NCBI GenBank assembly: GCA_048882325.1
Contig: JBHLRS010000001.1
Location: forward strand, 85,557-149,556
Direction: 5' to 3'
Source of the DNA: Candidatus Thorarchaeota archaeon
GTDB lineage: Archaea; Asgardarchaeota; Thorarchaeia; Thorarchaeales; Thorarchaeaceae
Length of the DNA: 64,000 bases
Each line of letters opens with the position of its first letter. Position 1 is the stretch's first letter. Shown piece after piece: positions 29,458 through 60,656 of the stretch. The position numbers were made by a program, and so were the translations under genes. A model generated the notes under the pieces. That model searched no databases and was not told the origin of the DNA. It saw only the letters and a list, made by a program, of their open reading frames with translations.

Positions 29458-29844
29458 TCACGTCGTCGTGGACGCTTCATACTTACTCGGACAAGATGTC
29501 AATATTTTCGTAGCGTGTATGAGCGACGCTGACTGCAACTGACCAATGGCTACTATCTCCTGACCATCTATCAGATTCGGAGTATCTCCAAGTATAAGCA
29601 CCGTGATTGTGTGATTCTCACCTTCCATCACCAATGTCACATTCTCTGATGTTGTTGCCAGTGAACCAGCTTGATATGCTCCCTTGACCTGAATGTTGCG
29701 ACCCATGTACGGATCGGGATTTGTGACAACCTCATCAACTGCTAGATATGGATCTACGAATAGGTTCAGCATAGCAAATGCAACGAAACCAATTGTTGCA
29801 ACCAAGATGATTGCTACAGCTGCCATTCGCGTTCTCTTCTTCAT
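29458..29844 (-). CDS. ccmE: Heme chaperone CcmE, CxxxY variant
   Basis: N-terminal TM helix, OB-fold-like core, C-terminal ILTSCPSKY. Confidence 0.9.
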   Translation of the reverse strand: MKKRTRMAAVAIILVATIGFVAFAMLNLFVDPYLAVDEVVTNPDPYMGRNIQVKGAYQAGSLATTSENVTLVMEGENHTITVLILGDTPNLIDGQEIVAIGQLQSASLIHATKILTSCPSKYEASTTT

Positions 29845-29846
29845 TA

Positions 29847-29987
29847 CTACTGGTCTCCTTCTAGCTGTGAATCCACCATCTTGAGTTGCTTCTCTATTCC
29901 TATCATCCTCAATAAAAGATATGCTAGGAATACAAAGATGCCTCCCCAGAGGATAACGGCTACAATGAACAATTCAAATTGCTGCAT
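29847..29987 (-). CDS. ccmD: CcmD-like small membrane protein (46 aa, absent from ORF track)
   Basis: Hand-translated MQQFELFIVAVILWGGIFVFLAYLLLRMIGIEKQLKMVDSQLEGDQ*. One TM helix plus charged tail, located exactly between ccmC and ccmE with 4 and 2 bp gaps. Confidence 0.8.
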   Translation of the reverse strand: MQQFELFIVAVILWGGIFVFLAYLLLRMIGIEKQLKMVDSQLEGDQ

Positions 29988-29991
29988 GACG

Positions 29992-30660
29992 TTAACTCCT
30001 TTCCATTCTTATTCTCATCAATTTTTCTTGAGCTGAATCAATTTTGTATGACAAATCCACCATGATCAAAGCGATGAACGTAACTGCGATCATCGCAACG
30101 AACAAAGTCATCATATGTTCAACTTCCATTTGGAGCCCTGATGGCTCAATGACTATTGGGTGTAGAGTATCCCAAATTCGAATTGAAAGATAGCTCAATA
30201 TTACCATTGGGAATGCTACAATTCCAAAAATTGAACCAAACTGAGCTCTGGACTCACGATCACCAACTGAGGCTCGATATGCTAGAATACACGCGTACGC
30301 CACCCACAGTATTAGAGTGGTTGTTTCTCGAGGATCCCAGTTCCAGTATGAATTCCAAGCTGCATTGGCCCACATCATTCCAGAAAGCAAGGTTATCGTT
30401 GTGAACAACAAGCCAAGCTTGATTGCTACTGCTCCAAGGATATCATATTTCAAATCTCCTTTCCAGAGATACATTACACTGCAGAGTAATGTCCCCCCAA
30501 ATAGTCCATATGCCACAAGTGCGGGTGCTACGTGCTGAAAGAAGATTCGAACATTCTCTCCCAGCTGGACATCTGGTGGTGCGAAGATCCAAGTCATATA
30601 GACATACAAGAGTGCTATCGCTGCGGTGATTCCAAGAAAAATCAGCTGGGTTTTTCTCAC
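29992..30660 (-). CDS. ccmC: Heme exporter/WWD protein CcmC
   Basis: WWD motif WANAAWNSYWNWDPRET; His ligands in FQHVAP and TLHP. Confidence 0.92.
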   Translation of the reverse strand: MRKTQLIFLGITAAIALLYVYMTWIFAPPDVQLGENVRIFFQHVAPALVAYGLFGGTLLCSVMYLWKGDLKYDILGAVAIKLGLLFTTITLLSGMMWANAAWNSYWNWDPRETTTLILWVAYACILAYRASVGDRESRAQFGSIFGIVAFPMVILSYLSIRIWDTLHPIVIEPSGLQMEVEHMMTLFVAMIAVTFIALIMVDLSYKIDSAQEKLMRIRMERS

Positions 30661-30738
30661 GGTTTTTCAACTCGAATTGTCGGCGGACAACACAGTTCGT
30701 AATATGAAGGTTTTGTTAACAGTGTTAACATCAAAGCT

Positions 30739-31437
30739 TCACGGTGAAAGTGCGAAGTGAAACACTGATGCTGATAGTGTCAACATTGCTATCAGATGTG
30801 CTAGTAGAATTTCGAAAATGAACAAAACTGTTAGACCCATCCCTAATACTAGTGCGCCTGTTCCAAGGACAGCAATTTTGGTGAGTTCGATTAACAACAT
30901 CAGACCTGAGATTGCTGTTGGGAAGTATACCAAGGGAAAAATGGTCGACTTCGACTCTGATGGCATCGTCAAGGCTGATGCCATTGATCCCACTGCTGCC
31001 AAGTCCAATGTACCGATGAGAATAGTGGCCATCATTAGTGGGAGGTCATTGAATATAGAGAAACCAAACAATACCGAGATGATAGGAACCAGAAAAATCT
31101 CCACGAGTCCCATTAGTAAAAATCCATAGACTACCTTTCCTAGATATACAGACCATGCTGGAATTGGAGCTGTGGCTAAACCTCGAAGTGTGCCTGTTTC
31201 TGCTTCTGAAAGGAATATAGGTGCAAATCCAAACATGCCTGTGAAGAATATGATGACCCAAAGCAAAGCGCTACCAACTTCTTGTGGCACTATTCCTCCT
31301 GTGACTACTGCAAAGGAAAAGGCTAGAACTGCAATCAATGCAAAGAGGAACATCGAGAACATTTCGAACTTCTTACGAAATTGAGTGAGAATGTCTTTCT
31401 TCGCGATTGCCAGTGCTGCACCTAGTCCTGATGTCAT
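30739..31437 (-). CDS. ccmB: ABC permease CcmB
   Basis: About 6 TM; FLSEAETGTLRGL; position between ccmA and ccmC. Confidence 0.85.
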   Translation of the reverse strand: MTSGLGAALAIAKKDILTQFRKKFEMFSMFLFALIAVLAFSFAVVTGGIVPQEVGSALLWVIIFFTGMFGFAPIFLSEAETGTLRGLATAPIPAWSVYLGKVVYGFLLMGLVEIFLVPIISVLFGFSIFNDLPLMMATILIGTLDLAAVGSMASALTMPSESKSTIFPLVYFPTAISGLMLLIELTKIAVLGTGALVLGMGLTVLFIFEILLAHLIAMLTLSASVFHFALSP

Positions 31438-31446
31438 CCTTACACC

Positions 31447-32124
31447 TCACAGAGATTGGTCAAATTCAGATATTGGACCTTGGCTTACAACCACACCCTT
31501 TCTAAGTGTCACATACTCATCACACAATGCTGCACCATATGCAAGATTGTGTGTTGTTACAATAGTCGTTCTTGCATTCCTATACTCATTCAGGTATTCC
31601 CAGAAGTCTTCAGTTGTGTCTTTATCCAGCCCACTGAAAGGCTCATCCAGAAGCAACAATTCAGGATCGTGTATCAGACTTCGGACAATATCGAACCTTT
31701 TCTTCAGACCCGTTGAGAGATTCTTCACAGGTTCTTCAAGCCATGTATTAATGGAAAATCGTGTGGTCAAATCCGCGACCTGAGATTCAAAAAACTCTGC
31801 TGCGAGCCCGTAGAGTTTCCCGTAGAACTTAAGATTCTCCAGACCTGTCAGTTCCTCGTAGAGAAGCACTTTGTCACCTACCAGCCCGATTCTGCTTTTC
31901 ACCTCTTCAGGCTCTTCCTGAGGATCAAATCCCATCACAGAGATTTGCCCTCCATGAGGTCTCAGAAGGGTGGAGATGACTCGCATGAGCGTTGTCTTGC
32001 CCGCTCCATTGGATCCAAAGAGACCATGAACCCCTCCCTTCGAAAACCTGAGTGAAACTTTCCTTAATGCGACTCTGTAGCCATAGCGTCTTGTGAGTTC
32101 GTTTGTTTCTATGGCTACTGTCAC
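31447..32124 (-). CDS. ccmA: ABC ATPase CcmA
   Basis: Walker A GSNGAGKTT, signature LSTG, Walker B LLLDEP. Start placed at GTG 32124 after AGGTGG (ORF track starts at 32196). Confidence 0.85.
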   Translation of the reverse strand: MTVAIETNELTRRYGYRVALRKVSLRFSKGGVHGLFGSNGAGKTTLMRVISTLLRPHGGQISVMGFDPQEEPEEVKSRIGLVGDKVLLYEELTGLENLKFYGKLYGLAAEFFESQVADLTTRFSINTWLEEPVKNLSTGLKKRFDIVRSLIHDPELLLLDEPFSGLDKDTTEDFWEYLNEYRNARTTIVTTHNLAYGAALCDEYVTLRKGVVVSQGPISEFDQSL

Positions 32125-32231
32125 TAGTTGATCCACCTTTGATGTCAGCTGAACGCACTTGAAACCCTTATTTAATGTGCTGGATGAATGCCTCATGCTT
32201 TAACTTGGTTCAGCTGATGCTGAGGATGTTG

Positions 32232-33449
32232 TTACTCAAGTCCCATCAAACTCATGAATAGGTCCTCAATATTGAGTACCTTGATATCCACTCCACGTTT
32301 TTTCACGGCATCAAGAAAGTTCAACTTACAGAACACACAGGATGAAACAACAGTTGTTGCTCCAGTTTCGAGGGCCTGATTTAACCTTCTCTCAGCCACA
32401 TTGATCGCATTCTCGCCGAATCCAGCCTTGAATCCTCCTCCGGCTCCGCAACAAACAGAGTTTTGCCTGTTCCGCTCCATTTCAACGAAATTAATTCCAG
32501 GGATACTTTTTAGTATCTCTCTAGGTGGTTCAAAGATGCCAACATGTCGGCCGAGATGGCAAGGATCGTGGTATGTTACTGTTTCGGGGTAATCCTTCTT
32601 CCACTCGAGCTCTCCTTTTTTCAGCTTGAGAGCCAAGAATTGTGTAAGATGTTGGGTAGAGAAGGGGAGAATACCATGTCTTTCTCTGTAATATCTGGGC
32701 CAATCTAAAGTTGTTGTCCGATAACATCCTGAGCATGAGAAGATGACATGCTTGATACCTCTAGACTTCATTTGCTCAACATTATGAACGATGAACTTCT
32801 CAGCCTCGAGTGTTCCTAGCAGCTCCATCTCACCATCCTCTGACTCCTCGTGAATCGGACGAACCACCTGTCCTGTTCTAATCAATGGGCTACAACAACA
32901 GTATTCATCAGCTCCAAGAATCTGAGGTTCAACTCCAAAGTAGTTGAGCATTCGAAGAGTCGCATCAGCAATCTCTGGTCTCTTGTACGATGCTGTGCAT
33001 CCTACAAAATAACCCCACTCAGAATCTTCCGAGATTCTTGTATCTGGTTGGACCCAGTCACCTCGTTCCCTAGGGTTCTCTCCAAACACATTGTTGAATT
33101 TAAATGCCATATCACCCATGACATGCAATTTTCCATAGGGCCCCTTGCCCATCTGAACGAGTTTTTTCCGAACATCCTCGATTATTCTGACATATGGTAC
33201 TTTGATAGGACACCTCTCGACACACTGTTCGCAGGTACTGCACGCATATACTGCTCGTATGAATCCTTCATCAACAGGTAGATTCTTCTCAACATATGAT
33301 CGTAAAAGTCTAAGACGTCCTCCAGCGAAGTACGCTTCCGACTTAAACTCCTCATAACTAGTGCATGTCCATCTGCATGTCGAGCAATTACTACATAGGA
33401 CAATCTGGTCAGGATCCACATCAAGCTCAGGTGTAAAGAATCGCGCCAT
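32232..33449 (-). CDS. (Fe-S)-binding CCG-domain protein (HdrD/GlcF/GlpC-like)
   Basis: CSNCSTCRWTC and CSTCEQCVERCP ferredoxin motifs; YCCCSP, CSGC, HDPCHLGR, CCGAGGG. Confidence 0.9.
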   Translation of the reverse strand: MARFFTPELDVDPDQIVLCSNCSTCRWTCTSYEEFKSEAYFAGGRLRLLRSYVEKNLPVDEGFIRAVYACSTCEQCVERCPIKVPYVRIIEDVRKKLVQMGKGPYGKLHVMGDMAFKFNNVFGENPRERGDWVQPDTRISEDSEWGYFVGCTASYKRPEIADATLRMLNYFGVEPQILGADEYCCCSPLIRTGQVVRPIHEESEDGEMELLGTLEAEKFIVHNVEQMKSRGIKHVIFSCSGCYRTTTLDWPRYYRERHGILPFSTQHLTQFLALKLKKGELEWKKDYPETVTYHDPCHLGRHVGIFEPPREILKSIPGINFVEMERNRQNSVCCGAGGGFKAGFGENAINVAERRLNQALETGATTVVSSCVFCKLNFLDAVKKRGVDIKVLNIEDLFMSLMGLE

Positions 33450-34931
33450 CTAGAAACTTCCCTCCTGGTATGATACTGGAATCTGTAGAATCTTCTTCGC
33501 TCTTCGGAGTAATGCCTGCAACCTCCGGAAGTTTCCATTCATTGTAAACATGAGATTCAATCGTGTGTATGACATGACACAATGTGTCAACTTGTCAGGA
33601 TTCATTATTCCTTTCGGATCCCAAGTTTTACGAAGTTCCTTATAGCGCTTGTAATCTTCAGGTTGGTATTTCTTGATGTAGACGGTGTTCTGGAGCCCTA
33701 AAGTATAGAGCCTACCACCTCGTCGATACATCATTTTTACAAGTTTGTGAAGCATAGATTTTCCAGACATAAAATGCATCCAATGCCTGTGGTCTGAGGG
33801 AGCAAACACGCAAAGTCGGGCCATTGAAGAGCTACCAAGAACGCAATAGAAACAAGAATTGATGTGGTAGTTGCTTGCGATTTTGTACATCTTCCTTACG
33901 ATTGGCTCAATATGCTGAATCGGAATCCAGAAATTCTGCATTGACAGTGTGGGGACCTCGAGCTTCAGTTTCATCTCGACGATGTTTCTGTCTTCCCAAT
34001 TCTTGTTGTAGTAATCCTGTTGCATCTCCTCTCCACCCGCAACCTCAAAAATACCGCGGGCAGTTTTCATTGATTCAGCTACTTCATCTGCGGGTCCGCC
34101 ATATGTTACCATAACAAAGAACAGCCCCGATGTCCCCGGTGGTAGACCTCCTTGAATCCGCCACTCGTATTCAAGGTCCGTCAGTCTTAAGTAGACTGGT
34201 TGTGTTTTCGTCTTACTTAACCGGGAAAGAGCATCCACGGCTTTATGCAGGTCGTCGAACGCAAACATAAAGCCCTGAATTTCTTCTGGTATCGGAATCA
34301 CTTTCATCTTTATGGTTGTGACAACCCCAGCAATCCCAGAAGTTCCAAAGAATGGCTTCATGTCTTCTCCCGTTACCGTATCGATAGTGCCATCTGGTCT
34401 AACAACTTCCATCTCAAGCACATTTTCAATCATTGAACCATACTTCGGGGTTCCGACTCCAGCCGAACCACCAATTGCTAACCAACCAGCAAGGGTAGAT
34501 GCCACACCACTCTGAGGTGCAGATGGTATTGCCAAGCCATGTTTGCTTAAATCATTGTTGAGAATCTCCCAAACAGCGCCTGCTTCTACTATTATCCACC
34601 CATCATCTTTGTTTACTTCTTTGAGTTTATCCATGCGTTTTGTGTCAATCACAATTCCGCCCCTTGTCGGACTTGCTGAACCATAGTAGCACGTCCCTCC
34701 ACCTCTTGGAATGATGGGTATTTTCTTCTTTGAGGCGAATTGAATAATTTGTGATACTTCTTCACTTGACTCTGGCCACGCTACATAGTCTGCAAGCCAT
34801 TTCTTTTTCCATCTATAGTGATAATATGGGATTCCGGTTGTATCTCCACTTGCAGATAGACGCTCAGCAATCAGGTCACTAACCCATGGCACTTCGGAAA
34901 GTTTTGTGATTTGGTCTGTTGAATTCATCAT
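33450..34931 (-). CDS. FAD-binding oxidoreductase (GlcD/D-LDH/VAO family), type A
   Basis: PRGGGT, STLAGWLAIGG, GIAGVVT, WDPKGIMNP; paralog of 45247..46728. Confidence 0.88.
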   Translation of the reverse strand: MMNSTDQITKLSEVPWVSDLIAERLSASGDTTGIPYYHYRWKKKWLADYVAWPESSEEVSQIIQFASKKKIPIIPRGGGTCYYGSASPTRGGIVIDTKRMDKLKEVNKDDGWIIVEAGAVWEILNNDLSKHGLAIPSAPQSGVASTLAGWLAIGGSAGVGTPKYGSMIENVLEMEVVRPDGTIDTVTGEDMKPFFGTSGIAGVVTTIKMKVIPIPEEIQGFMFAFDDLHKAVDALSRLSKTKTQPVYLRLTDLEYEWRIQGGLPPGTSGLFFVMVTYGGPADEVAESMKTARGIFEVAGGEEMQQDYYNKNWEDRNIVEMKLKLEVPTLSMQNFWIPIQHIEPIVRKMYKIASNYHINSCFYCVLGSSSMARLCVFAPSDHRHWMHFMSGKSMLHKLVKMMYRRGGRLYTLGLQNTVYIKKYQPEDYKRYKELRKTWDPKGIMNPDKLTHCVMSYTRLNLMFTMNGNFRRLQALLRRAKKILQIPVSYQEGSF

Positions 34932-34940
34932 TATTCACCT

Positions 34941-35351
34941 CTAGGCAATATATAGAAGATATCCCATGACAAAGACTATTGTCCAACATGTTGCAGCAGT
35001 CAGACCAGGTATTTGTGTTCGAATGCCTGATATGCCAGTAAGAAAGGCACCAACACCAGCCAAGTACCCAATCACACCTAAACCAATATGGATTAGATGA
35101 AACAGATCCGCGCTTCCTGATCTCAACACCGTGTCTGTAAGTGGGAGAATCGCTACGATATTGACTGATGTCAGTAACAAGGCCAGTCCTGCACATACTC
35201 CATGGACAAAGGTGTATTTCTCTTTAGAAATGTAATATAATGAAGTACCAATATAGAGGAGTATCAGTGCGGGAAGTCCAAGTATGACGCTCATGTGTAC
35301 ATTGCCGATTTGTAATGCCTGAAGTTGACTAGTTATCATAGTTGTAGTCAT
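34941..35351 (-). CDS. 4-TM His-rich cytochrome b-like membrane protein
   Basis: Four TM helices with His in HMSV, FVHG and FHLIH; homologous to the C-terminus of 46730..47929. Confidence 0.6.
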   Translation of the reverse strand: MTTTMITSQLQALQIGNVHMSVILGLPALILLYIGTSLYYISKEKYTFVHGVCAGLALLLTSVNIVAILPLTDTVLRSGSADLFHLIHIGLGVIGYLAGVGAFLTGISGIRTQIPGLTAATCWTIVFVMGYLLYIA

Positions 35352-35513: not shown

Positions 35514-37232
35514 TTAATGGAAGATTTTCCTTCCTAGTCTAAGGAATGGTGTACCAATTGAAAGTACGACCGTTATTGGAATAAGATTAGCAAACTCTGA
35601 AACAGCATATCCAACAAGTAACCCTACAGCGAACCAGATGAGAAAGCTCGTTAGATCATTGACTACTATCCATGGAACATATGCCTGAAATATGGTTGGT
35701 ACAAACAATCTTGCAACCCAGATGACGACTGGTGCAATTAATCCTGCAGCGAACATGATGAGCAGATTTATCCTAATACTCAGTACCAATGGTCCTGGAA
35801 ATACTTTGTGTGAATTGAGATATCCCTTTTTGTCAGTTTTACGTTTCAGATTTGACATCTTAGCGTATTCTTCTTTACCATAGAAGCTCCTCGAATGTGC
35901 AGCGTTCCACATTCCGATAGAGTAAGCCCTGCCACCATGTTTCAATCCTAGATTGATCACATCCAAGGAACGATACCAACCCATGAGGAATGATATTCTG
36001 CGACGTTCATCATCTGGGAACCATGTCAGAACTGCAACCTCTCCTCTGTCGGTTATTGCCCCTTCTAGGGCAAAATCCTCATCTTTGAAATGCTTGTTCA
36101 TATGAGTGATATACTCATCAAGATTCTCTAGTGGAACGTATACCTCAGAAGGCGCTAGACTCGGTCCCAGTCTCTTAATCCGCATGGGATAGAACCGCTC
36201 ACCCCATTCATGCTCTGCAACCTCCTTTGATTCAAGGGATCCACTATACCGACTTACAATATGTTCAAGTTTTTCAATCTCGGTAGCTATTTCATCCTCG
36301 GTACCTTCGAAAGCGCACGAGATTACAAATTCACCAGTCGTTGGTGGAGCTTGATTCACCTCTCTTAGCATACCATAGAATTTGTCCGTTATGAAATGCA
36401 GATAGAAGGGTCTTGTAGCCTCAAGAATATCCTGAAGTGCTCCAACCATTAGACTCTGGCTTCTAAAGGAGGATGTTGTTGGTCTGATGTTTCGAAGTGG
36501 AATGATTTTTAGGACGACTTTTGTGATCACACCAAGTGTACCATTGCTGTCCAGAAAGAGCTGCGTTGAATCAGGATTATACATAAACTCGCCGACATCA
36601 CCATAGAATGTATCTCCTCCACCAAAGTTCTTAGTTTCTTTTTCTATCATGAATTCCTCTTCGGACGTTTCCTTTGTTCGAATAACTCTACCATCTGGAA
36701 GTACTACTTCAAGGTCTACCACCTGTTCTGATATACCACCATATTTTGTACTTCCGATTCCAGATCCGCCTGCTGCAACCCAACCTCCAACCGTGCTTGA
36801 TGGAGCGCTGGAAGGATAAGCGGCTACGGTGACACCCTCATCCTCTAGCTCTTCAATCAGTTTTCCCCAGATTATTCCAGCACCTACCTCAATTGTCATT
36901 GTCTGTTTGTCAATGTTCAGGATCTGATTCATTCTGGTCATTTCAACAACAAGTCCACCTCTTGTAGGAAGTGCGCCCCCATATCCACTTGTCCCATGAC
37001 CTCTGGGAACCACAGGGATATTATTCTCTTTGCAATAAACCAACAGATTCGACACAACTTCAGTTGTTGTTGGTTGAGCTACGGCTTCCGCGTGCGGATT
37101 TAATACATCATTGACAATTCCAGGCAGTGCTGCAATATCACTTGAGTAAAGTTTGGTCATGTATTTCTCAGCTGAGAAATAGTCTTCACCTACGATGTCA
37201 GCCAAATTCTGAATGTGTTTCTTCCCAATCAT
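35514..37232 (-). CDS. FAD-binding oxidoreductase, type B with C-terminal TM helices
   Basis: PRGHGTSGYGG, YPSSAPSSTVGGW, GTLGVIT, RFYPMRIKR; hydrophobic C-terminus; paralog of 39727..41448. Confidence 0.88.
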   Translation of the reverse strand: MIGKKHIQNLADIVGEDYFSAEKYMTKLYSSDIAALPGIVNDVLNPHAEAVAQPTTTEVVSNLLVYCKENNIPVVPRGHGTSGYGGALPTRGGLVVEMTRMNQILNIDKQTMTIEVGAGIIWGKLIEELEDEGVTVAAYPSSAPSSTVGGWVAAGGSGIGSTKYGGISEQVVDLEVVLPDGRVIRTKETSEEEFMIEKETKNFGGGDTFYGDVGEFMYNPDSTQLFLDSNGTLGVITKVVLKIIPLRNIRPTTSSFRSQSLMVGALQDILEATRPFYLHFITDKFYGMLREVNQAPPTTGEFVISCAFEGTEDEIATEIEKLEHIVSRYSGSLESKEVAEHEWGERFYPMRIKRLGPSLAPSEVYVPLENLDEYITHMNKHFKDEDFALEGAITDRGEVAVLTWFPDDERRRISFLMGWYRSLDVINLGLKHGGRAYSIGMWNAAHSRSFYGKEEYAKMSNLKRKTDKKGYLNSHKVFPGPLVLSIRINLLIMFAAGLIAPVVIWVARLFVPTIFQAYVPWIVVNDLTSFLIWFAVGLLVGYAVSEFANLIPITVVLSIGTPFLRLGRKIFH

Positions 37233-37243
37233 TCTAGCACCAC

Positions 37244-38422
37244 CTAGAGACCCAACGCCTCCACCACAATCTGAGACAGGTCTTTGAACTTGATCTTAGA
37301 TTCGCGGTTTTCAATTCCATCATTAAGAGACATTGTACATGATGGACATTCACTCGCCAATATAGTCGCACCCGTCTTTTCAGCCTCCTCAATCCGTCTT
37401 GCTGAAACTCTAACTGACGCTACTGGATATGTTCCTTTGAGTAATCCGCCACCACCACAACATCTAGCTTTGTTCCGATTGTGTTTCATCTCTTTCAATG
37501 TAAGGCCCGGAATTGCACTAAGAAGCTCGCGAGCTGGATTGTAGATATTCTGATGTCTTCCCAATTCACAAGGATCGTGCCACACCACTTCATGTGGGTA
37601 CTCTTTATCGAACTTGATCTTTCCTTCTTTCAGTAGCCTAAGTGCGAACTCAGAAAATGGAAGGAATTCGAGACCTTCAACCACCTCTTTCCCGAGGAGA
37701 TGTGGATATTCTTCAGCAAATGCTCGATGACAGCCTGGACAATTGAATACAACTGTCTTGACACCGAGATTCTTTAGAGCTTTAATGTTGTGCATGGCCA
37801 GTTCTTTTCCTTTGTCAAAACCACCTGCAACGAAGTAAGGATTTCCACAACAGAATTCATCATCTCCTAGAATTGTGAAATCCACTCCTGCAGCATCCAT
37901 TACCCTTATGGTGTTCTCACCCATGTGGGCAAGAGTACCTTTGAATGAAATGTTACATCCTGCGAAATAAGCAACCTCTGCTTCAATACCAATCCTATCT
38001 TCCACGAGATCATCAACCATATCTGTCCAGAGGGTCCTGTCAGCTTGGTCCATCTCCATAATGTTCTGAGTCTGCTGTAGCGAATCATCAATGTAATTGA
38101 CAATCTCTGGCCATTGATTTAGATTACCTATCTCTTGTCTTGTTAGTTGCCAAAATCTTAGGAGAGGAATGTTTGTCTGACAAATCTCTTGACAGGCTCC
38201 ACATAGTGTACAATAGAAGATCCTCTGAGCGAAGTCGGGTGGAATCGGTTTGTTTTCTTTGATAAGGGTTCTAAGTTGCTGTAACTTTCCTCTAGGTGAT
38301 TGCGAGTCCCAAAGTGTGTCCAAATATGCTGGACAAACGAATGTACAGAATCCACACTTTGCACACACTGTTGGCTCTATGTCGAGTCCTTCAAGTTTGT
38401 GAGGTTCGTATGGTTTTGTCAT
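37244..38422 (-). CDS. (Fe-S)-binding CCG-domain protein
   Basis: CAKCGFCTFVCP, CTLCGACQEIC, CCGNP, HDPCELGR, CCGGGG. Confidence 0.9.
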   Translation of the reverse strand: MTKPYEPHKLEGLDIEPTVCAKCGFCTFVCPAYLDTLWDSQSPRGKLQQLRTLIKENKPIPPDFAQRIFYCTLCGACQEICQTNIPLLRFWQLTRQEIGNLNQWPEIVNYIDDSLQQTQNIMEMDQADRTLWTDMVDDLVEDRIGIEAEVAYFAGCNISFKGTLAHMGENTIRVMDAAGVDFTILGDDEFCCGNPYFVAGGFDKGKELAMHNIKALKNLGVKTVVFNCPGCHRAFAEEYPHLLGKEVVEGLEFLPFSEFALRLLKEGKIKFDKEYPHEVVWHDPCELGRHQNIYNPARELLSAIPGLTLKEMKHNRNKARCCGGGGLLKGTYPVASVRVSARRIEEAEKTGATILASECPSCTMSLNDGIENRESKIKFKDLSQIVVEALGL

Positions 38423-38437: not shown

Positions 38438-38938
38438 TCACGGCCATGGTATTCCGATCCAGTCTAGGATTGGTTTTAGGATTGAGGTATCATAGACAAA
38501 TATACCTCCTAATGCTCCCATGATCATCATCAAGACCCCACCAAAGATTACTAGAATCGCGTAGGGGAAATAGGTGGACGCCTTAACCCACACTCTGTCT
38601 CCAAGCCTTGCGCGAACAATAATCAGATAGACATAGATCTCCATAGATACTACCGACCAGAGAATCTTGAACCGCATTATTGATGATTCAACCAAGTCGA
38701 GGAATGTGTACTCGTCCATGAAACCTGTTAATGCCCCAGCGAACAGTCCTAGAAGACCGATGATACCCCCTACATATATGAATACATCAAATTGATGAAA
38801 TATCTTCGATAATCTAGTCCCTGGTGTGTTTATGTTGTCCCTAAAGAGTATACGAAGTAAGAGATTTACCAAAGCCACAGCAGCTGTGGCAGTCAAAATT
38901 CCAGTATGAAAGTGTACGAAAACAGGATGAATCGCCAT
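38438..38938 (-). CDS. DUF2231-like 4-TM membrane protein, putative heme b binder
   Basis: N-terminal IHPVFVHF motif, ...LTG..., GALGGIFVY. Confidence 0.6.
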   Translation of the reverse strand: MAIHPVFVHFHTGILTATAAVALVNLLLRILFRDNINTPGTRLSKIFHQFDVFIYVGGIIGLLGLFAGALTGFMDEYTFLDLVESSIMRFKILWSVVSMEIYVYLIIVRARLGDRVWVKASTYFPYAILVIFGGVLMMIMGALGGIFVYDTSILKPILDWIGIPWP

Positions 38939-54152: not shown

Positions 54153-55358
54153 TTGGACGGTTGCCAATTGACTCATTCCTATGATATTGCAATTGTTGGT
54201 GCGGGTCCAGCTGGTTCTAGTGTAGCAAAGGTGACCGCAAGAAATGGATTGCGCACAATAGTCTTTGATCGACGCTCCACAGTTGGTGTTCCAATCCAGT
54301 GTGGAGAGTTGATTCCATCACCTAGGGAAGCTAAAAACCTCTTCCCAAATTCAAAGAGAATGCCTCGAGTTGTTCATATACCGCCAAAATTCATCACAAA
54401 CAAGACTCGATGTATACGGTTGATATCCCCAAATGGGACCACATACGAGTTTCCGTTTGAAGCTAATATTGTGGATAGAGCCAAGTTTGATGAACATCTA
54501 ACGCTTCAAGCTGAAGAGGTTGGAGCTGAGTTCCATTATAGCTCGACTGTAAAGAGCCGAAATAAGACTAACGAGTTAGCAATCAGGACCCATCAATCAT
54601 TTACTACCAAAAAAGCTGGTATCATTGTTGGAGCTGATGGTGCTCAATCTATTGTAGGTAAATCTCTTGGGTCTTCATACATGCATGCAGAGGCTGATTT
54701 GAGCGCATCTCTTCAGTATGTGATGTCTGGTACAGATGTTGATCCAACCGTTGTTGAGATGTATTTTGGCGAAAAGATTGCGCCAGGTGGATATTCTTGG
54801 GTCATTCCTAAAGGTGATGGTATTGCAAACATCGGATTTGGTATGAGGAGAAGTATCGCAACTGATGATACATCTCTCCAAACGTACCTAAAACGATTTG
54901 TTCACAAAACTTTGGCGACTGTCTTGATGAATGCGAAAATAGAAAGTAGGATTGGAGCTATTATTCCTGTCGGAGGTCCCCTTCCACGAACATGGTCGAA
55001 GAATGTGATTTTAGTTGGAGACGCCGCTGGCCATGTTATGGCATCGAATGGTGGAGGTATTCCAACAGCTTTGTGTGGAGGTGAAATAGCTGGAGATGTA
55101 ATTTCAAACCATTTCCATACAAATATCTCACTTTCTGAATATGAAGAAAATTGGAGAGATGAATTTGGCAGGGAGCTTGAAACTGCTCTTCGCGTCTTAA
55201 GAATTGCAGACAACGTGATGCCTTCCGATAGATTAACTGACATATGCATGAAACTTGCAGGAGTTCGATTTCTCGAACCGTTGATTCGCTGTCGATTACC
55301 TCTCCCGGTTGATATTGCGTCCAAAACGATGGTCAAAATCATGAATCAGTTTCTTTGA
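54153..55358 (+). CDS. Geranylgeranyl reductase family protein
   Basis: IVGAGPAGS, CGE, GADGAQS, PGGYSWVIPK, VGDAAG, GGGI. Confidence 0.9.
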   Translation: MDGCQLTHSYDIAIVGAGPAGSSVAKVTARNGLRTIVFDRRSTVGVPIQCGELIPSPREAKNLFPNSKRMPRVVHIPPKFITNKTRCIRLISPNGTTYEFPFEANIVDRAKFDEHLTLQAEEVGAEFHYSSTVKSRNKTNELAIRTHQSFTTKKAGIIVGADGAQSIVGKSLGSSYMHAEADLSASLQYVMSGTDVDPTVVEMYFGEKIAPGGYSWVIPKGDGIANIGFGMRRSIATDDTSLQTYLKRFVHKTLATVLMNAKIESRIGAIIPVGGPLPRTWSKNVILVGDAAGHVMASNGGGIPTALCGGEIAGDVISNHFHTNISLSEYEENWRDEFGRELETALRVLRIADNVMPSDRLTDICMKLAGVRFLEPLIRCRLPLPVDIASKTMVKIMNQFL

Positions 55359-55359
55359 A

Positions 55360-56415
55360 CTAGTAGAGTCGTTTCATAGCAAAGTCTGCAAGGAGTAGAA
55401 GTAGCTCCTCGTTCATCAAATCATATCCTCTTATCGCTTGCTTCGCTTCAAGCATGTAATCCCTTGCTACTGAGGTAGAGTGCTCAACTGACTTGCACTC
55501 TTTGATTCTCTTTAATGCGTATTTCACATCGCCATCATTCAATTTCTGAACAAAAATCTCTTTCTCTTTAGGTGAACATTTTTCAATTGCATGGGCCAGG
55601 ACGTAGTTACTCCGGCTGCCTCTTAGATCCGACAGAACTGTCTTTCCGGTTCCATTTTGAGTGGCAATAATATCTAGAATATCATCTCGAATCTGAAACG
55701 AGTAGCCAAGCTTCTCTGAGAATTTTATCAAAGCCTCAAGTTGGTTCTCGTTAGCATCTCCAAGCATTGCGCCAACCTTTGCAGCAGAAGTCATGAATGA
55801 GACGGTTTTCATACGGATGATATCCAAAGCCGCGGTAGTCGTGTACGATTGTACTTTGTCCTTGCTCATTAGAAGGTCTGCAGCCTCTCCCTCACACATT
55901 CTGATTCCACCAGCCGCCACATAGGTGAGAAGCTGAGGTGTCGACCTCTCTCCAATCAATTTGATTGCTAATGCTACCAGTAGGTCTCCTGCAATCACTG
56001 CCATTTTCCTACCATACTTCTCATGAGTGGCCTCGACCCCACGTCGAACTTCGTCCTCATCAATGACATCATCATGAATCAGACTAGCTGTTTGAACAAA
56101 CTCTGTTGCGACTGCAAAGGGTAGCGCATCAACCACAGTTCCACCAACTGCTTCACAACAAAGGATCAGTAAAAGAGATCGTAGTCTCTTACCACCTGCA
56201 AGTATCAGATGACGTGTGGTTTCATAGAGGATTGCTGGTTCTCCATCCTCATCCAAAAGACATCGTTTGATCTCCTCATTTATGAGGTTGATTCGAGTAC
56301 GAATCTTTTCATTAGTAAGCAGCTCGGTTGTATCCATCAACCTCAGGGATTCATCTTCAAGCTGAGGATTAGAACCAGTTTTAACAGAGGGTCGTTCTGA
56401 CATTTGATGGTACAC
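55360..56415 (-). CDS. Polyprenyl diphosphate synthase (IdsA/IspA family)
   Basis: GGKRLR, FARM LIHDDVID..RRG, AGDLL, KT, SARM FQIRDDILD. Confidence 0.92.
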   Translation of the reverse strand: MYHQMSERPSVKTGSNPQLEDESLRLMDTTELLTNEKIRTRINLINEEIKRCLLDEDGEPAILYETTRHLILAGGKRLRSLLLILCCEAVGGTVVDALPFAVATEFVQTASLIHDDVIDEDEVRRGVEATHEKYGRKMAVIAGDLLVALAIKLIGERSTPQLLTYVAAGGIRMCEGEAADLLMSKDKVQSYTTTAALDIIRMKTVSFMTSAAKVGAMLGDANENQLEALIKFSEKLGYSFQIRDDILDIIATQNGTGKTVLSDLRGSRSNYVLAHAIEKCSPKEKEIFVQKLNDGDVKYALKRIKECKSVEHSTSVARDYMLEAKQAIRGYDLMNEELLLLLADFAMKRLY

Positions 56416-56536
56416 CTAGCGACTGTTTCAATTCTTAAGCACCTTAAAGCAGTTACCTTTCCTCATGCAATTATCAAACCAAAGGCAATCCTTTTCTATG
56501 ATTAGAAATTGTGATGTATTAATCTTGGTGACCATC

Positions 56537-57583
56537 ATGGCTTCCAATGTTGACACCTCTCTCAAAAAACCATCCCGATTTCGAATATGGCTTGCTGAGA
56601 TGAGGGCTCCTTTTCTGACAGCAGCCATTGTCCCAGTCATTCTGGGTACGTGCGTGGCATGGGCGTCAAGCGGAGTTTTCTTACTAGATGTGTTTCTTCT
56701 GACACTAATTGCAGGAGTGTTCATTCACATAGGCGTAAACGTTGCGAATGATTACTATGATCACAAGAGTGGCACTGATGACATTAATGTCGACTATGTT
56801 CGCCCGTTCACTGGCGGAAGTCGAATGATTCAAAGAGGTTGGATGACTCCCAGAGAGGTTTTTACAGAATCTATGGTCTTCTTCATCCTTGGTGGTGGGA
56901 TCGGTATCTATCTAGCCTATACGAGAGGAGTAGAAGTTCTAATACTGGGAATCATTGGTGTTGGCTCAGGTTTTTTCTATACTGCGCCGCCTTTTCGGTT
57001 CGTTAGCCGTGGGTATGGCGAGGTGTTCATAGGACTGGACTTTGGTGTACTCATGACACTTGGGGCGTATTTCGTTCAGACTCAAGTATTGGCATGGGAG
57101 GCTGTATGGCCATCAATTCCAGTGGCTATTCTGATCACGGCAGTGCTTTACATCAATGAGTTTCCAGATCATGATGCAGATCGTGATGCTGGAAAGAGAA
57201 CCATTGTGGTACGTCTTGGTCGAAAACTTGCTGCAAAAGGATATGCTGTCTTGATGGTGTCTGTCTATCTTTCTATACTGGTCCCTATCGTTTTCAATCC
57301 AGGAATCTGGTTCACAATTCTGGGACTAGCCACAATACCAGTGGCTATTCTTTCTACAAGGTATGCATTAACCCACTATGATCATCCACTTCCCCTAACA
57401 CCTGCATATGCAGGAACGGTGACTAATCACCTCCTCACTGGTCTGTTCTTAGCATGGTCATACATTCTCATTGGACTCGGAAGAGAACCGATCTGTGTTT
57501 TAATCTGGGGGATTGTCTTCACAACTGTTTCTCTATTGTTTTACATCTTCACAGAACGAAAGGCAAAGGCTGTAGCAGGCTAA
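56537..57583 (+). CDS. menA: 1,4-dihydroxy-2-naphthoate polyprenyltransferase (MenA, UbiA family)
   Basis: RAPFL, NVANDYYDHKSGTD, FTGGSR, YTAPP, GYGEV, INEFPDHDADRDAGKRT. Start at ATG 56537 after GGTGA. Confidence 0.85.
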   Translation: MASNVDTSLKKPSRFRIWLAEMRAPFLTAAIVPVILGTCVAWASSGVFLLDVFLLTLIAGVFIHIGVNVANDYYDHKSGTDDINVDYVRPFTGGSRMIQRGWMTPREVFTESMVFFILGGGIGIYLAYTRGVEVLILGIIGVGSGFFYTAPPFRFVSRGYGEVFIGLDFGVLMTLGAYFVQTQVLAWEAVWPSIPVAILITAVLYINEFPDHDADRDAGKRTIVVRLGRKLAAKGYAVLMVSVYLSILVPIVFNPGIWFTILGLATIPVAILSTRYALTHYDHPLPLTPAYAGTVTNHLLTGLFLAWSYILIGLGREPICVLIWGIVFTTVSLLFYIFTERKAKAVAG

Positions 57584-57608
57584 GCGAATCTTCTGGTGAG
57601 TTTGTCTA

Positions 57609-58097
57609 TCACTGGACCCTAGAGGCTGTCCATTTGTAGAAATTGGCTCCCATCCAGTATGAGATCTTTCGAGGTTTGATTTGTATTGCAATTCTTGAAC
57701 CCATTGGGTAACCCGGCCCTAGGAAATGAATGTACTTGGCAAGAAATTCAACCATCACCTGATTGTCTGCAATCTCCATTTCTATCAATTGTGCTCGTCC
57801 TTGAATCATGACCCCACGATTTCTAGCAGGAGATCTCGCATCTCTTTCATCCACTGTTACGCATACTCGAGTGTTGCGACGGATGTTTCTAACCTTTCGA
57901 CTCTGCCTAGTTGAAACCAAGTAGATAGACTCTGAATCATCATCCCAGATGAAGAACATAGCTGTTAGATGTGGATCACATTCTGGTTCAGCTGTTCCAA
58001 GATATGCAAAGAAACCATCTCTCAGTATATCGAGGGCTGGTCTTGGAATTTTCTTTGTGCTCTTGGTGAAGGCCTTTTGTGGCTTTGATAGAAACAT
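57609..58097 (-). CDS. Pyridoxamine 5'-phosphate oxidase-like split beta-barrel protein (FMN/F420/heme-binding family)
   Basis: FAYLGTA..PHLTAMFF, SRKVRNIRRNTRVCVTVD, GVMIQGRA. Confidence 0.8.
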   Translation of the reverse strand: MFLSKPQKAFTKSTKKIPRPALDILRDGFFAYLGTAEPECDPHLTAMFFIWDDDSESIYLVSTRQSRKVRNIRRNTRVCVTVDERDARSPARNRGVMIQGRAQLIEMEIADNQVMVEFLAKYIHFLGPGYPMGSRIAIQIKPRKISYWMGANFYKWTASRVQ

Positions 58098-58101
58098 GAT
58101 G

Positions 58102-59364
58102 TCACGCTCTCAATGTTGTTGGCTTTGCCTCTCTCCAATAAGTAATCCTCTCGGGTTCGATTCTGACCATCACCCTGGAGATGAAGGGTTTGTTTTGCCA
58201 TGCTAGCGGTAGTTCTCGCACGTTTGTTTCGTAGTACTTCATATATCGGGGGTACTTCCCCGCAAACAAGGAACGGACTCTCACCATCCAAAGTCCGTAG
58301 ATGAACATTCTGGCTATTCCCATTAGTGTTATTTCACCGAGGACCAAAGCTTTTCCCCTCACCATCACTGCTCGATTTCGCATTGGATTTATAGCATCTC
58401 TCATGTCAACAAGAATCGCAGCCTTTGGATTCTCCTTGATTATCCTATACTTTGCAGAGGCAACTGAAATTCCTATGTAGATATACTTTCCATCATATAC
58501 AAAGATGACTGGAGTTACATGTGCTTGACCTGAGGCACAAAGTCCAACATATGCAAATCGTTCATTGAATAGAATACTCTCTACATCAGGTGGGAACCAT
58601 GGAACAGTTTCCATTGCTAAGAAACTGAGGAAAGAAAACCCAATGATAAAGACCAAATAAGCTAGTAGTCCAAGTAGCAAGAGCGGCGAGTGAACTGCCA
58701 CAGGGATGATAAGCGCCGCTGAGGCTCCCCAATATAGATTCACTGAGTCCAGAAACTTTAGCGTACGAATCTCAGAATATGCTGTGTATTGCAAACCTCT
58801 TCTTCTTCTTGCAGCGAAGCTTAAAGCGATTGATCTACGTGCCGCAAAAAGTGTGGTAATGAAAGAAAGGCCCAATCTGTAGCTAACATCCCAACTTAGA
58901 ACGAGGACCAAAATGAACAATAATGGATTTCCATATCCTGGACCTAAGAAATGCTGTAAGAATTCTGAGTCTCTCATGGCATAAACAATTAATCCCAAAA
59001 AAAGGAGGACCCCAGGAGCTAGCTCATAACTCCTTTTCATAAGAAGATCCTCTTTATACTCTTGAAGCACTCTCAGCTCCTGCTTGTTTGTCGGATCTCT
59101 CAGTCGTCTCATCGATGGTATAATGTATAGGCAACCAGCAGACCAGATGACTGTATACATTATGGTCAGTGTGCCAAGAATTACCGATTCAACTGGCATT
59201 TGAAAATAGATGAACGCAAAGATGCCCACTGCCTCGACTAGGAAAAGCTGTGCAATGACATCCCAGGTAGGCGGCAACCATCGAAACGGTGGGATGTACT
59301 CTACAATCTCCTCATAGATCCATTTTCTCTGACTCCGCCTTTGCTGTTCAGAATCGACAGTCAT
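58102..59364 (-). CDS. Membrane protein (~6 TM) fused to a C-terminal PPOX-like split beta-barrel
   Basis: Hydrophobic N-terminal ~250 aa; C-terminus FAYVG..AHVTPVIF, SAKYRIIKENPKAAILVD, AVMVRGKA. Confidence 0.75.
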   Translation of the reverse strand: MTVDSEQQRRSQRKWIYEEIVEYIPPFRWLPPTWDVIAQLFLVEAVGIFAFIYFQMPVESVILGTLTIMYTVIWSAGCLYIIPSMRRLRDPTNKQELRVLQEYKEDLLMKRSYELAPGVLLFLGLIVYAMRDSEFLQHFLGPGYGNPLLFILVLVLSWDVSYRLGLSFITTLFAARRSIALSFAARRRRGLQYTAYSEIRTLKFLDSVNLYWGASAALIIPVAVHSPLLLLGLLAYLVFIIGFSFLSFLAMETVPWFPPDVESILFNERFAYVGLCASGQAHVTPVIFVYDGKYIYIGISVASAKYRIIKENPKAAILVDMRDAINPMRNRAVMVRGKALVLGEITLMGIARMFIYGLWMVRVRSLFAGKYPRYMKYYETNVRELPLAWQNKPFISRVMVRIEPERITYWREAKPTTLRA

Positions 59365-59432
59365 TATTTTGTAGCTTTACACGGCTGTATATTTACATGT
59401 CGAAACTGAGTAGAGGAACCAATAGGTTCAGT

Positions 59433-60656
59433 TCAACCGTAAATCTCGTCGAGACCATCCCACGATAGTCCCATAGCTTGCGCAACTAACACTGCTAGAT
59501 CTTTGACGCTCTTACTTGAACCTGCATGAGGTAGTTGGTCATGCATGAAGTCCACACATGAGGGACAAGAGGCTATCACTGTGTCTGCATTAGTTTCTTC
59601 AATATCCTCAACTTTCAGTTTGTTTATCTGCAATGCAAAGTCCGCATCGACAGCTCTTAGAACCCCACCTGACCCACAACAATAGCAGTTGGCCTTGTTA
59701 TGAGGTAGCTCCTCGAATGTCACTCCTGGAAGGTGTTCCAAGACTTTGCGCGGCTGCTCATAGAATCCTGAATTCCGTCCTGCATCACAACCATCATGGA
59801 AAGTCACAGTCAAGTCCAAGGGAGTGTTGAGATCTAGCTTATTCTCGTCAATCTTTTCCTCAAAGTATTCGGGACCGTAGAGAATCTCAAAGCCATGATC
59901 GATGCCTAGGAACTCATGATATTCGTGTGCCCACATCTTATAGCAACCTGGGCAGTTTGTCACGACACGCTCTACACCGAGCTCTTTGTACTTCTTGATA
60001 TTGTGTTCTGCAAAGGCTCGTGCAGTTTCAAAGTTTCCAGTCATGATCATCGGTGCGCCGCAACAATATTCCTCCTCTCCAAGAACGGTATAGTCCTCAC
60101 CGATCTTGTCCATAATCAGTGTTGTAGCTATTGTTGCCTGGATTGATACACCCCTGAATGATGAGGCACAACCAAAGAAGAATGCTGTCTTTCCAGGTTG
60201 TCCCTGTTTGTCAATCAGATCATCTTCATTTGGTGTCCAGTATGACCACCCTTCAATTCTATCCATCTGCGCTTGACCTTGAATATTGAAGTTCTTGAGT
60301 AGCGTCTCTTTCGCCATTTCTAAAGCTTCAGGCCACATTCCTCGTCTCATGAAGTCGTTTCTCAACACCTGGTAGATCTTGACGAACGGAATATCAACCT
60401 GGCATACCTCCTCACAACCTCCACAGAGGGTACAACCAAAGATTGCATCTCTAAGACCTTCGAGACCTTCAGATGGTCTCAGTCTGCCCTGCATCAGGGC
60501 TCGGGTCAACATCATCTTCCCCTTTCCGGAGTAGCTGTCTCTTCGCTTTACCTTGTAAGTGGGACATGCTCCATGACCCACTTGACAGAAACTACATTGA
60601 GCACAAGTAAAAGCGTATTCTTGAAGTTCATGTTCACTCAAAGCTGGGAAGTCCAT
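59433..60656 (-). CDS. (Fe-S)-binding CCG-domain protein (fifth paralog)
   Basis: CAQCSFCQVGHGACP, CTLCGGCEEVC, CCGAP, HDGC, CCGSGG. Start placed at MDFP. Confidence 0.88.
   Translation of the reverse strand: MDFPALSEHELQEYAFTCAQCSFCQVGHGACPTYKVKRRDSYSGKGKMMLTRALMQGRLRPSEGLEGLRDAIFGCTLCGGCEEVCQVDIPFVKIYQVLRNDFMRRGMWPEALEMAKETLLKNFNIQGQAQMDRIEGWSYWTPNEDDLIDKQGQPGKTAFFFGCASSFRGVSIQATIATTLIMDKIGEDYTVLGEEEYCCGAPMIMTGNFETARAFAEHNIKKYKELGVERVVTNCPGCYKMWAHEYHEFLGIDHGFEILYGPEYFEEKIDENKLDLNTPLDLTVTFHDGCDAGRNSGFYEQPRKVLEHLPGVTFEELPHNKANCYCCGSGGVLRAVDADFALQINKLKVEDIEETNADTVIASCPSCVDFMHDQLPHAGSSKSVKDLAVLVAQAMGLSWDGLDEIYG

Follow-up and report, generated by a model that had tools for sequence, protein, structure and literature searches.

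Asgard archaea that do not belong to Heimdallarchaeia are usually modelled as fermenters or acetogens, with their electrons passed as H2 or formate to partners. Could a member of the Thorarchaeota also carry electrons through its membrane to the outside of the cell? The question is raised by a stretch of 64,000 nt from Candidatus Thorarchaeota archaeon (GCA_048882325.1, contig JBHLRS010000001.1, positions 85,557–149,556 of the forward strand), referred to below as the window, in which flavoproteins, iron-sulfur (Fe-S) proteins with CCG domains, His-rich membrane proteins and c-type cytochromes are encoded together with the cytochrome c maturation (Ccm) system. An earlier note on this DNA had described its positions 29458–60656 as a single locus for a respiratory or extracellular electron-transfer chain. 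The co-conserved unit of cassettes, cytochromes and Ccm genes sustains that proposal, but the type of donor, the single locus and the supply of the quinone head group do not. In the reading that we prefer, and whose chances we judge from the sequences to be about even, a conduit would lead from the flavoproteins through their CCG/Fe-S partners and the membrane to monohaem c domains, a nine-haem surface cytochrome and the outside, operating with haem and a quinone head group that are both salvaged.

Gene content was established by an open reading frame (ORF) listing combined with Pfam and NCBIfam scans of the window, and the absence of pathways by six-frame family searches over the whole genome, which is 3.6 Mb in size, 93% complete and has 4% contamination. 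Class-wide counts refer to 87 species genomes of Thorarchaeia in 17 genera. Loci in relatives, 13 in number, were located by a protein-guided scan with one of the flavoproteins, FAD3tm, in one genome per prokaryotic species. Gene orders were also compared with G010, a single-scaffold Thorarchaeia genome from a different genus (g6) than that of the window. The searchable literature, in which most subscription journals are not covered, yielded no description of the island or of a cytochrome/quinone chain in Thorarchaeota.

An accessory block beside a conserved core

Eighteen genes of the island lie on the minus strand, from 47929 down to 29458, with intergenic gaps of −4 to 196 nt. They start with a fusion of an exported cytochrome domain to a four-helix membrane module (cytc-TM4, 46730–47929), followed by FAD4 (45247–46728), CCG4 (44113–45237), an amine-oxidase-like flavoprotein (42750–44093), CCG3 (41445–42653) and FAD3tm (39727–41448). 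The genes that come next are cytc1 (38952–39530), a DUF2231-like protein with four transmembrane (TM) helices (38438–38938), CCG2 (37244–38422), FAD2tm (35514–37232), TM4a (34941–35351), FAD1 (33450–34931) and CCG1 (32232–33449), and the series ends with CcmA (31447–32196), CcmB (30739–31437), CcmC (29992–30660), a 46-aa TM ORF (29847–29987) and CcmE (29458–29844). A divergent set on the plus strand comprises the multihaem cytochrome (48246–49637), a 723-aa anchored surface protein (49795–51966), CcmF (51988–54045) and a geranylgeranyl reductase (54153–55358). Beyond the latter are found a polyprenyl synthase (55360–56415, minus strand), MenA (56465–57583, plus strand), two PNPOx-like genes (57609–58097 and 58102–59364, both minus strand) and a fifth CCG protein, CCG5 (59433–60698, minus strand). 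All genes listed in the earlier note are present, at about the positions given there, in the ORF, Pfam and NCBIfam scans, but the amine-oxidase-like flavoprotein between two CCG genes had been missed, and the C-terminal TM helices of two of the four FAD oxidoreductases had gone unmentioned.

The gene order is kept in all 13 of the other Thorarchaeota-type loci, three of which lack the TM4a–FAD1–CCG1 cassette, and this order, together with the tight packing of the 18 genes, argues that the island did not arise by chance. The 13 FAD3tm loci show 70–79% identity, and the metagenome-assembled genomes (MAGs) containing them are titled Candidatus Thorarchaeota in 11 cases, 'Promethearchaeota archaeon' in one and 'uncultured archaeon' in another. 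Because these relatives are of the Thorarchaeota type and CcmE is in the archaeal CxxxY form, the contig is assigned by its sequence to Asgard archaea (Thorarchaeota), as the earlier note had expected. Among the 87 genomes, 40 have FAD3tm-type genes, 37 have CcmF and 35 have the multihaem gene, and each of the three is confined to the same five genera. The FAD cassette and CcmF are both present in 31 genomes and both missing from 41, with 15 discordant genomes, many of which are fragmentary. Co-conservation of the flavoprotein, CCG, 4-TM, cytochrome and Ccm genes is thus borne out both by their order in the 13 loci and by their co-occurrence across the class.

MenA is distributed more widely, being present in 62 of the 87 genomes and 15 of the 17 genera; 28 of these genomes have no cassette block. 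On shared contigs it is located 1.4–33 kb from a cassette gene, in all five of the genera named above and in varying gene orders. The single locus postulated earlier therefore holds for the flavoprotein, CCG, 4-TM, cytochrome and Ccm genes, which form one syntenic unit, but not for MenA, which belongs to a wider core (61–62 of 87 genomes). From the sequences, the region in the window is best described as an accessory block plus a part of this core, in a neighbourhood of at least 50 kb that appears to be of respiratory type. The core, found in about 61–62 of the 87 genomes, consists of MenA and the prenyl-tail genes, a trio of CCG and PNPOx genes, and an 11-subunit complex I-like pump with an FAD–NuoB fusion. 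In turn, the accessory part (about 35–40 of 87 genomes, five genera) is an insertion beside the core that contains four FAD+CCG cassettes, the nine-haem cytochrome, the surface protein and the Ccm genes. Three of the four cassettes include a His-rich four-helix membrane module, and two include an exported single-haem-c domain.

The complex I-like operon (C1:151106–166055) is positioned just downstream of the window, and the only NuoL/M/N-type genes of the genome are found 10–16 kb past the window end, so that the system extends beyond the limits of 29458–60656 drawn earlier and beyond the window itself. The first gene of the operon encodes a 646-aa fusion of a fifth FAD_binding_4/FAD-oxidase_C paralogue to NuoB, the NuoB part scoring above the cut-offs of both TIGR01957 and NF005012. 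Downstream come genes for a 190-aa membrane protein, for NuoA, J, K, C, D, H and I, and for four antiporter-like subunits; NuoEFG are absent from the operon. The 11-subunit Fpo/Fqo-type relatives of complex I likewise comprise NuoA, B, C, D, H, I, J and K with antiporter-like subunits and without NuoEFG, whereas the Thorarchaeal operon differs in having an input module that is a VAO-type flavoprotein in one chain with NuoB, as well as four antiporter-like genes. The fusion is full-length in 61 of the 87 genomes (72–94% identity), two more matches (55–56%) cover its FAD part only, and in cassette-free genomes it lies 2–5 kb from MenA. In G010, the Nuo genes with FAD–NuoB are followed by a divergently oriented CCG5, which heads the array of DUF7530–PNPOx, PNPOx and four cassettes, and then by MenA, the prenyl synthase and CcmA-B-C-(small, CcmD-like ORF)-E, all within about 33 kb.

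Flavoproteins, iron-sulfur proteins and cytochromes

Each of the four FAD_binding_4/FAD-oxidase_C proteins of the window adjoins a protein with two [4Fe-4S] and two CCG motifs. FAD1 is a cytoplasmic protein, as judged from its sequence, while FAD2tm and FAD3tm carry predicted C-terminal TM helices; FAD4 was identified by Pfam. Their domain architecture and their pairing with a CCG Fe-S protein are those of the GlcD/D-lactate dehydrogenase/YdiJ family, but two of the paralogues have TM helices, one is fused to NuoB, and the scores against the GlcD model TIGR00387 are low, at 122–156 bits for the four window paralogues and 145 bits for FAD–NuoB versus a cut-off of 567.9. The best solved relatives are mouse D-lactate dehydrogenase (LDHD, PDB 8JDB), LctD and glycolate oxidase, and the PDB also includes an LDHD variant with the second of its metal-site His residues changed to Ala. 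Orthologues of FAD1 share at least 56% identity inside Thorarchaeota, a value that drops directly to at most 36% elsewhere. The metal-binding residues of the cap domain of mouse LDHD are, in the numbering that we assume, H398, H405 and E442. The corresponding His/His/Glu columns are replaced in all five FAD paralogues, including FAD–NuoB, with no conserved His or Glu in their place; in FAD1 the phmmer alignment has Val and Ala at the positions of the two His residues, and the Glu is missing. On these sequence grounds the flavoproteins are a lineage-specific branch of the VAO/GlcD superfamily. Since the metal triad is missing and the scores fall far under the GlcD cut-off, their substrates are not assignable from the family, and the 'GlcD/GlcF-type' donor dehydrogenases named in the earlier note are not borne out.

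The CCG proteins contain two ferredoxin-like [4Fe-4S] motifs and two CX31–39CCX35–36CXXC motifs, as detected by regular expressions and Pfam (PF02754 and Fer4_8 in CCG1), two of these motifs being variant, namely the first of the CCG type in CCG1 and the first of the ferredoxin type in CCG5. TfrB is the best NCBIfam match for all five, in each case below the cut-off. Among solved structures, CCG4 is closest to 9OJN ('iron-sulfur-binding reductase', 1042 aa, E 4.6e-17), with HdrB chains also among the matches. Two CxxCxxCxxxC clusters and two CCG domains are features shared with proteins of the HdrD/GlpC/EtfD type, which typically join a cytoplasmic flavoprotein to a membrane haem/quinone module, whereas the island proteins are separate soluble proteins of 374–421 aa. 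No NarI/HdrE-type dihaem cytochrome b partner is matched by Pfam among the island proteins; in place of such a subunit of HdrDE/DsrMK-type complexes, the membrane partners in the island are two unrelated 4-TM families, the Asgard-only TM4 and the DUF2231-like proteins. Few proteins of the block are as conserved as the amine-oxidase-like flavoprotein encoded between two CCG genes, which shows 90–94% identity across the loci that reach it and scores above no family cut-off. Its identification as HemY/protoporphyrinogen oxidase, which would have pointed to part of a haem pathway, was rejected, as the match reached 42 bits versus a cut-off of 98 and covered only the N-terminal dinucleotide fold; the HpnE and phytoene-desaturase models score higher than HemY, although still below their own cut-offs.

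Three His-bearing 4-TM modules are encoded in the island, namely TM4a (136 aa, without a Pfam match and with invariant H19, H50, H85 and H88), the DUF2231-like protein (invariant H4, H9, H11 and H48), and the C-terminal third of the cytc-TM4 fusion, which is homologous to TM4a and shares its four invariant His residues. In each of the two families four His residues are invariant or nearly so across orthologues, three of them predicted to be at the outer face of the membrane and one at the inner face. For the fusion, this topology is set by the exported domain, and the unrelated DUF2231-like protein has an equal three-plus-one pattern by the positive-inside rule. The TM4 family is Asgard-only and very small, with 57 clusters among 1.84 billion representatives. 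The second family reaches 23.1 bits with DUF2231 (PF09990) versus a gathering cut-off of 26.4, and its nearest named Atlas clusters carry PF09990 with scores of 0.84–0.86, which are leads only. Fold searches with AF2 models of TM4a (pLDDT 86; Foldseek and VIA-align) and of the DUF2231-like protein (pLDDT 72; Foldseek) returned generic four-helix bundles and none with E ≤ 0.001; among these were designed proteins and cytochrome oxidase subunit III, as well as weak STEAP matches with E of about 0.4–1.8. The conserved histidines fit the earlier suggestion of transmembrane haem b wires, and the modules probably hold haem b between these residues, but the fold searches are uninformative and do not demonstrate such binding.

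Both monohaem proteins have a signal peptide and one CXXCH about 10 residues past the predicted cleavage site, with Cys and His residues that are invariant or nearly so across orthologues, followed by a region in which Pfam gives only weak Ig-like matches. In cytc1 the chain ends in a single TM anchor, and in the fusion in the 4-TM module. The description of the two as exported monohaem cytochromes is correct as to export and the single CXXCH in each, but neither contains a classical cytochrome c domain. No distal His or Met is conserved within cytc1 itself in the orthologue alignment, and for that reason we can speculate that a His residue of a membrane module could complete the coordination of its c-haem.

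The multihaem cytochrome contains seven CXXCH motifs, an invariant CMHCM (residues 207–211) and a CX5CH (residues 315–322), i.e. nine conserved sites, the first of which is CX2CH or CX4CH depending on the species. Its true start is probably at 48276 or 48291. The protein has a signal at its N-terminus and a TM anchor at its C-terminus, and is predicted to be exposed on the surface of a cell without an outer membrane. OcwA (6I5B), the nine-haem cell-surface cytochrome of Thermincola potens, is the best match among solved structures (E 2.9e-10), followed by NrfA chains (E 1e-7). The two proteins are alike in having nine haem-type sites, whereas the Thorarchaeal one differs in its archaeal host, in its C-terminal TM anchor, in the CX5CH site and in having CMHCM where OcwA has a CxxCH, and only its residues 164–384 align. 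No CXXCK motif of the NrfA active site is found in the protein, the variant site being CMHCM. The adjacent 723-aa exported protein, with a C-terminal anchor and weak matches to alpha/alpha-toroids, always adjoins the multihaem gene. No other ORF of the genome has more than two CXXCH motifs, and therefore the Ccm system serves this island.

The Ccm genes form a System I set of CcmA, B, C, E and F, in which CcmA (PF00005) and CcmB (PF03379) are the ABC pair, and CcmC (PF01578) and CcmF contain WWD motifs (WNSYWNWDPRE and WGGYWAWDPVE, respectively). CcmE (PF03100) has C118-x3-Y122 (CPSKY), and CxxxY in place of HxxxY is a mark of the archaeal streamlined System I (PMC9084895). The set resembles that of Methanosarcina acetivorans (PMC9084895) in comprising CcmABCEF with a CxxxY-type CcmE and with no CcmH/I in the locus, and differs from it in forming one operon attached to the client genes, in its single-gene CcmF, and in the small TM ORF at the position of CcmD. 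This 46-aa ORF, with a single TM helix, lies between CcmC and CcmE in exactly the place of bacterial ccmD, a gene stated to be uniformly absent from archaea (PMC9084895). It is 70–83% identical in eight loci and is present, in duplicate, in G010; no match to Pfam CcmD was obtained even at E ≤ 10.

Several further genes flank these components. A flavodoxin-fold protein resembling FMN reductase/WrbA (28798–29457, plus strand; PF03358, E 3e-30) adjoins CcmE in the window as well as in loci L001 and L007, and lies near CcmE in G010. Of the two small flavoproteins close to MenA, the one at 57609–58097 is PNPOx/F420-PPOX-like and is kept with its two neighbours in G010, and the one at 58102–59364 is a DUF7530 membrane domain fused to a PNPOx-like domain, as seen from Pfam and the context in G010. 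A 1043-aa protein with many PKD/Ig-like repeats and a C-terminal TM anchor (60801–63932, minus strand) separates the CCG5/PNPOx trio from the complex I-like operon; in G010 it is missing from the corresponding position. On the other side of the island, a bacterial-type MutS with all five domains (25981–28581, minus strand) and MutL (14349–16160, minus strand) are encoded, and the synteny of MutS with the island extends to L001 and L007. A 1977-aa ORF (17883–23816, plus strand) has no Pfam match at E ≤ 1e-5.

Supply of haem and quinone

The Ccm system is thought to draw its haem from the cytoplasm, and all known haem synthesis runs via porphobilinogen synthase, HemB. Neither HemB nor HemC was found in the genome by the six-frame family searches, and tblastn with HemB and its AhbAB-like neighbour from G314, an uncultured Loki-type archaeon, gave nothing in the genome of the window. 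As a positive control, HemB was detected in G314, inside an Ahb-type haem cluster. Within Thorarchaeia it is found in one of the 87 genomes, and G010 is also without it. The sole match (G021 C459:866–1801) lies on one of the 670 contigs of an 80%-complete MAG, a very short one, and may be contamination. For AhbD, the best match in the genome, at 187 bits versus a cut-off of 500, is a generic radical SAM/SPASM protein and was rejected. Because HemB is missing class-wide, about 37 species of Thorarchaeia keep Ccm and haem c proteins without a known haem synthesis.

A comparable situation exists for the quinone. MenA, described in the window as a 1,4-dihydroxy-2-naphthoate (DHNA) prenyltransferase, passes TIGR00751 (129.2 bits versus a cut-off of 102.15), with the other MenA equivalogs below their cut-offs, and MenG/UbiE is present in the genome above its cut-off. 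The genes for the prenyl tail are the geranylgeranyl-reductase family flavoprotein, which scores above the cut-off of TIGR02032 (236.6 bits), and the polyprenyl diphosphate synthase, which matches PF00348 and does not reach the NCBIfam equivalog cut-offs. Neither MenB nor MenD was found above the cut-off in the genome, where their matches, rejected for this reason, are paralogues of enoyl-CoA hydratase and ThDP enzymes; MenD is above the cut-off in none of the 87 genomes. MqnA and MqnD are likewise missing from this genome and from all 87, and MqnC was not found in this genome. Thus, MenA and MenG are retained without a known route to DHNA. The earlier note had held that the lack of a head-group pathway would tell against its proposal, and for the known routes, DHNA and futalosine, this lack is what the searches found; the haem biosynthesis genes that it had expected to be informative gave no tetrapyrrole pathway either. 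The quinone prenylation step that it had assigned to the locus stands as far as MenA passes its family model, but MenA is not specific to the island and has no known DHNA supply.

Haem and the naphthoquinone head group must therefore be scavenged or made by undiscovered routes, and it is only with scavenged cofactors or such pathways that the chain would be workable, as HemB, HemC and both the DHNA and the futalosine routes are missing. An undiscovered route to the head group deserves weight, since MenA and the complex I-like core are close to universal in the family; the trio of CCG5, DUF7530–PNPOx and PNPOx is a candidate for such a route. Dependence on external cofactors is known in bacteria: Streptococcus agalactiae respires only when haem and quinone are supplied (PMC6030563), and the haem-auxotrophic Lactiplantibacillus plantarum depends on an outside supply of haem together with DHNA or quinone (PMC10701730). 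The Thorarchaeon is like these organisms in having respiratory or extracellular electron-transfer proteins and the late steps of quinone synthesis with the early steps missing, and unlike them in being an archaeon that requires covalently attached haem c and whose cofactor uptake and dependence are putative.

The cassette across Asgard archaea and its possible function

The TM4 profile has matches in 82 of 400 Asgard genomes, belonging to Thorarchaeia and three other families. In Promethearchaeum syntrophicum MK-D1, the TM4 protein DSAG12_01125 is followed by the FAD-binding oxidoreductase QEE15299 and then by a CCG protein. Its TM4 member has four extra N-terminal TM helices and no exported domain, and the operon of the cassette (L030, G229 C1:632000–651000) adjoins an acyl-CoA dehydrogenase fused to a rubredoxin-like domain. 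In Lokiarchaeum ossiferum, a cysteine-free TM4 protein with an exported domain (NEF87_003481) precedes an FAD protein fused to a dicluster domain, which is followed by MFS transporters. In G314, the cassette is found directly behind CcmE, B, A and F, a CcmG-like gene and CcdA; the exported domain carries a single-Cys xxxCH motif, and genes of haem synthesis are located about 15 kb away. The approximately 40-kb stretch of G314 that was fetched (C2:50000–89999) contains an AhbA/B-like protein fused to precorrin-2 dehydrogenase, a radical SAM/SPASM protein, HemL and HemB, together with two EB_dh (haem b domain) proteins and the Ccm genes. It holds two cassettes of exported-domain TM4 and flavoprotein, the first followed by a CCG gene and the second running off the stretch. 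Throughout Lokiarchaeia the 4-TM gene immediately precedes the FAD gene in every case, whether or not cytochromes are present. Judged from these sequences, the pairing of a 4-TM protein with a flavoprotein is older and wider than the Thorarchaeal island, and the recurrent link of the cassette to Ccm genes supports attachment of haem to the exported domain.

In the conduit proposed here, the flavoproteins would exchange electrons with cytoplasmic substrates, and their CCG/Fe-S partners would hand the electrons to the membrane, either to a menaquinone-like pool or directly to the 4-TM modules. These modules, with their probable haem b, would pass them to the monohaem c domains on the outer face, from which the nine-haem cytochrome would relay them to an external acceptor or a partner cell; the reverse direction of flow would also be possible. 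Such a chain may act as an electron sink for fermentation by direct export, or may include the quinone pool and work together with the complex I-like pump. Several points weigh against this conduit. The donor role of the flavoproteins is an assumption only, as they lack the metal triad found in the active site of the closest relatives that have been characterised. With no haem synthesis and no known head-group synthesis, function rests on a hypothetical salvage step; no haem importer came to light, although no search aimed at one was made. Direct export of electrons from the cytoplasm builds no proton gradient. The generic helix bundles returned by the fold searches with both 4-TM modules neither support nor exclude haem b. 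Additionally, two genomes, G039 (99% complete) and G058, have CcmF and no match to the cassette, so that the FAD cassettes are separable from the Ccm and multihaem genes.

That separability, along with the existence of other genomes with cassettes and no CcmF match, is also what would be expected if two systems shared one neighbourhood, with the FAD/CCG proteins acting as quinone-reducing dehydrogenases similar to GlcDEF, YdiJ/Dld-II or GlpABC, and the 4-TM, monohaem and nine-haem proteins as a quinol-oxidising terminal reductase, e.g. for nitrite, sulfur compounds or metals, in the manner of NrfA/OcwA-type enzymes. Besides TfrB, the CCG proteins resemble GlpC, LdhH and GlcF, a paralogous flavoprotein is fused to NuoB at the quinone-reducing module, MenA and MenG are present, and the multihaem protein also matches nitrite reductases of the NrfA type. 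However, the tight cassettes, with gaps of 1–15 nt, contain 4-TM and monohaem genes interspersed among the FAD and CCG genes, the order of 4-TM and FAD genes in Lokiarchaeia is invariable, and the CXXCK motif of the reactive haem of NrfA is replaced by CMHCM. We therefore regard a division into two systems as doubtful, though it deserves to be taken seriously.

The CCG proteins themselves would admit yet another function, in which the cassettes are HdrD/TfrB-like thiol/disulfide oxidoreductases acting on a cytoplasmic (hetero)disulfide or another sulfur compound, with electrons supplied either by the flavoproteins or, through uptake from outside, by the surface cytochromes. The TfrB matches of all five proteins, the two full CX~35CCX~35CXXC motifs in each of them and the HdrB chains among solved matches point in this direction. 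Yet all the family scores are far below their cut-offs, no genes for CoM/CoB or other thiol cofactors are seen in the island, and the CCG motif is not discriminating, as such domains are also present in quinone-linked enzymes, all of which makes this function improbable. The lack of HemB in 86 of the 87 genomes and the patchy distribution within genera could, in turn, indicate that the cytochrome part was acquired and is now decaying or without function, and that only the flavoprotein/CCG enzymes matter. We give this very little credence, because the nine haem sites, the monohaem CXXCH, the CxxxY of CcmE and the WWD motifs are intact in orthologues down to 50% identity, mostly without stop codons, and the Ccm genes and cytochromes are kept together in five genera.

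The conduit can be taken one step further. As a tentative proposal, which we hold to be possible though not probable, the three genes of the cassette would encode a hitherto undescribed, Asgard-specific transmembrane electron-transfer complex, whose parts are a His-rich 4-TM protein bearing an exported His/haem domain, a VAO flavoprotein without the triad and an HdrD-like CCG protein. In Thorarchaeia, this complex would have been multiplied four-fold and wired to haem c and the nine-haem cytochrome, for extracellular or interspecies electron transfer on borrowed haem and naphthoquinone precursors. While the components are of known kinds, the architecture of the cassette, the Asgard-only 4-TM family, the FAD–NuoB input module and the missing cofactor pathways set the system apart from known extracellular or respiratory electron transfer. 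Since the core cassette is present in both cultured Lokiarchaeia, MK-D1 and Lokiarchaeum ossiferum, the hypothesis is testable in culture. If it is true, direct electron exchange with minerals or partner cells would join the repertoire of Asgard archaea, with a bearing on syntrophy models of eukaryogenesis, and an archaeal respiration that relies on cofactors of the community could explain the resistance of these organisms to cultivation.

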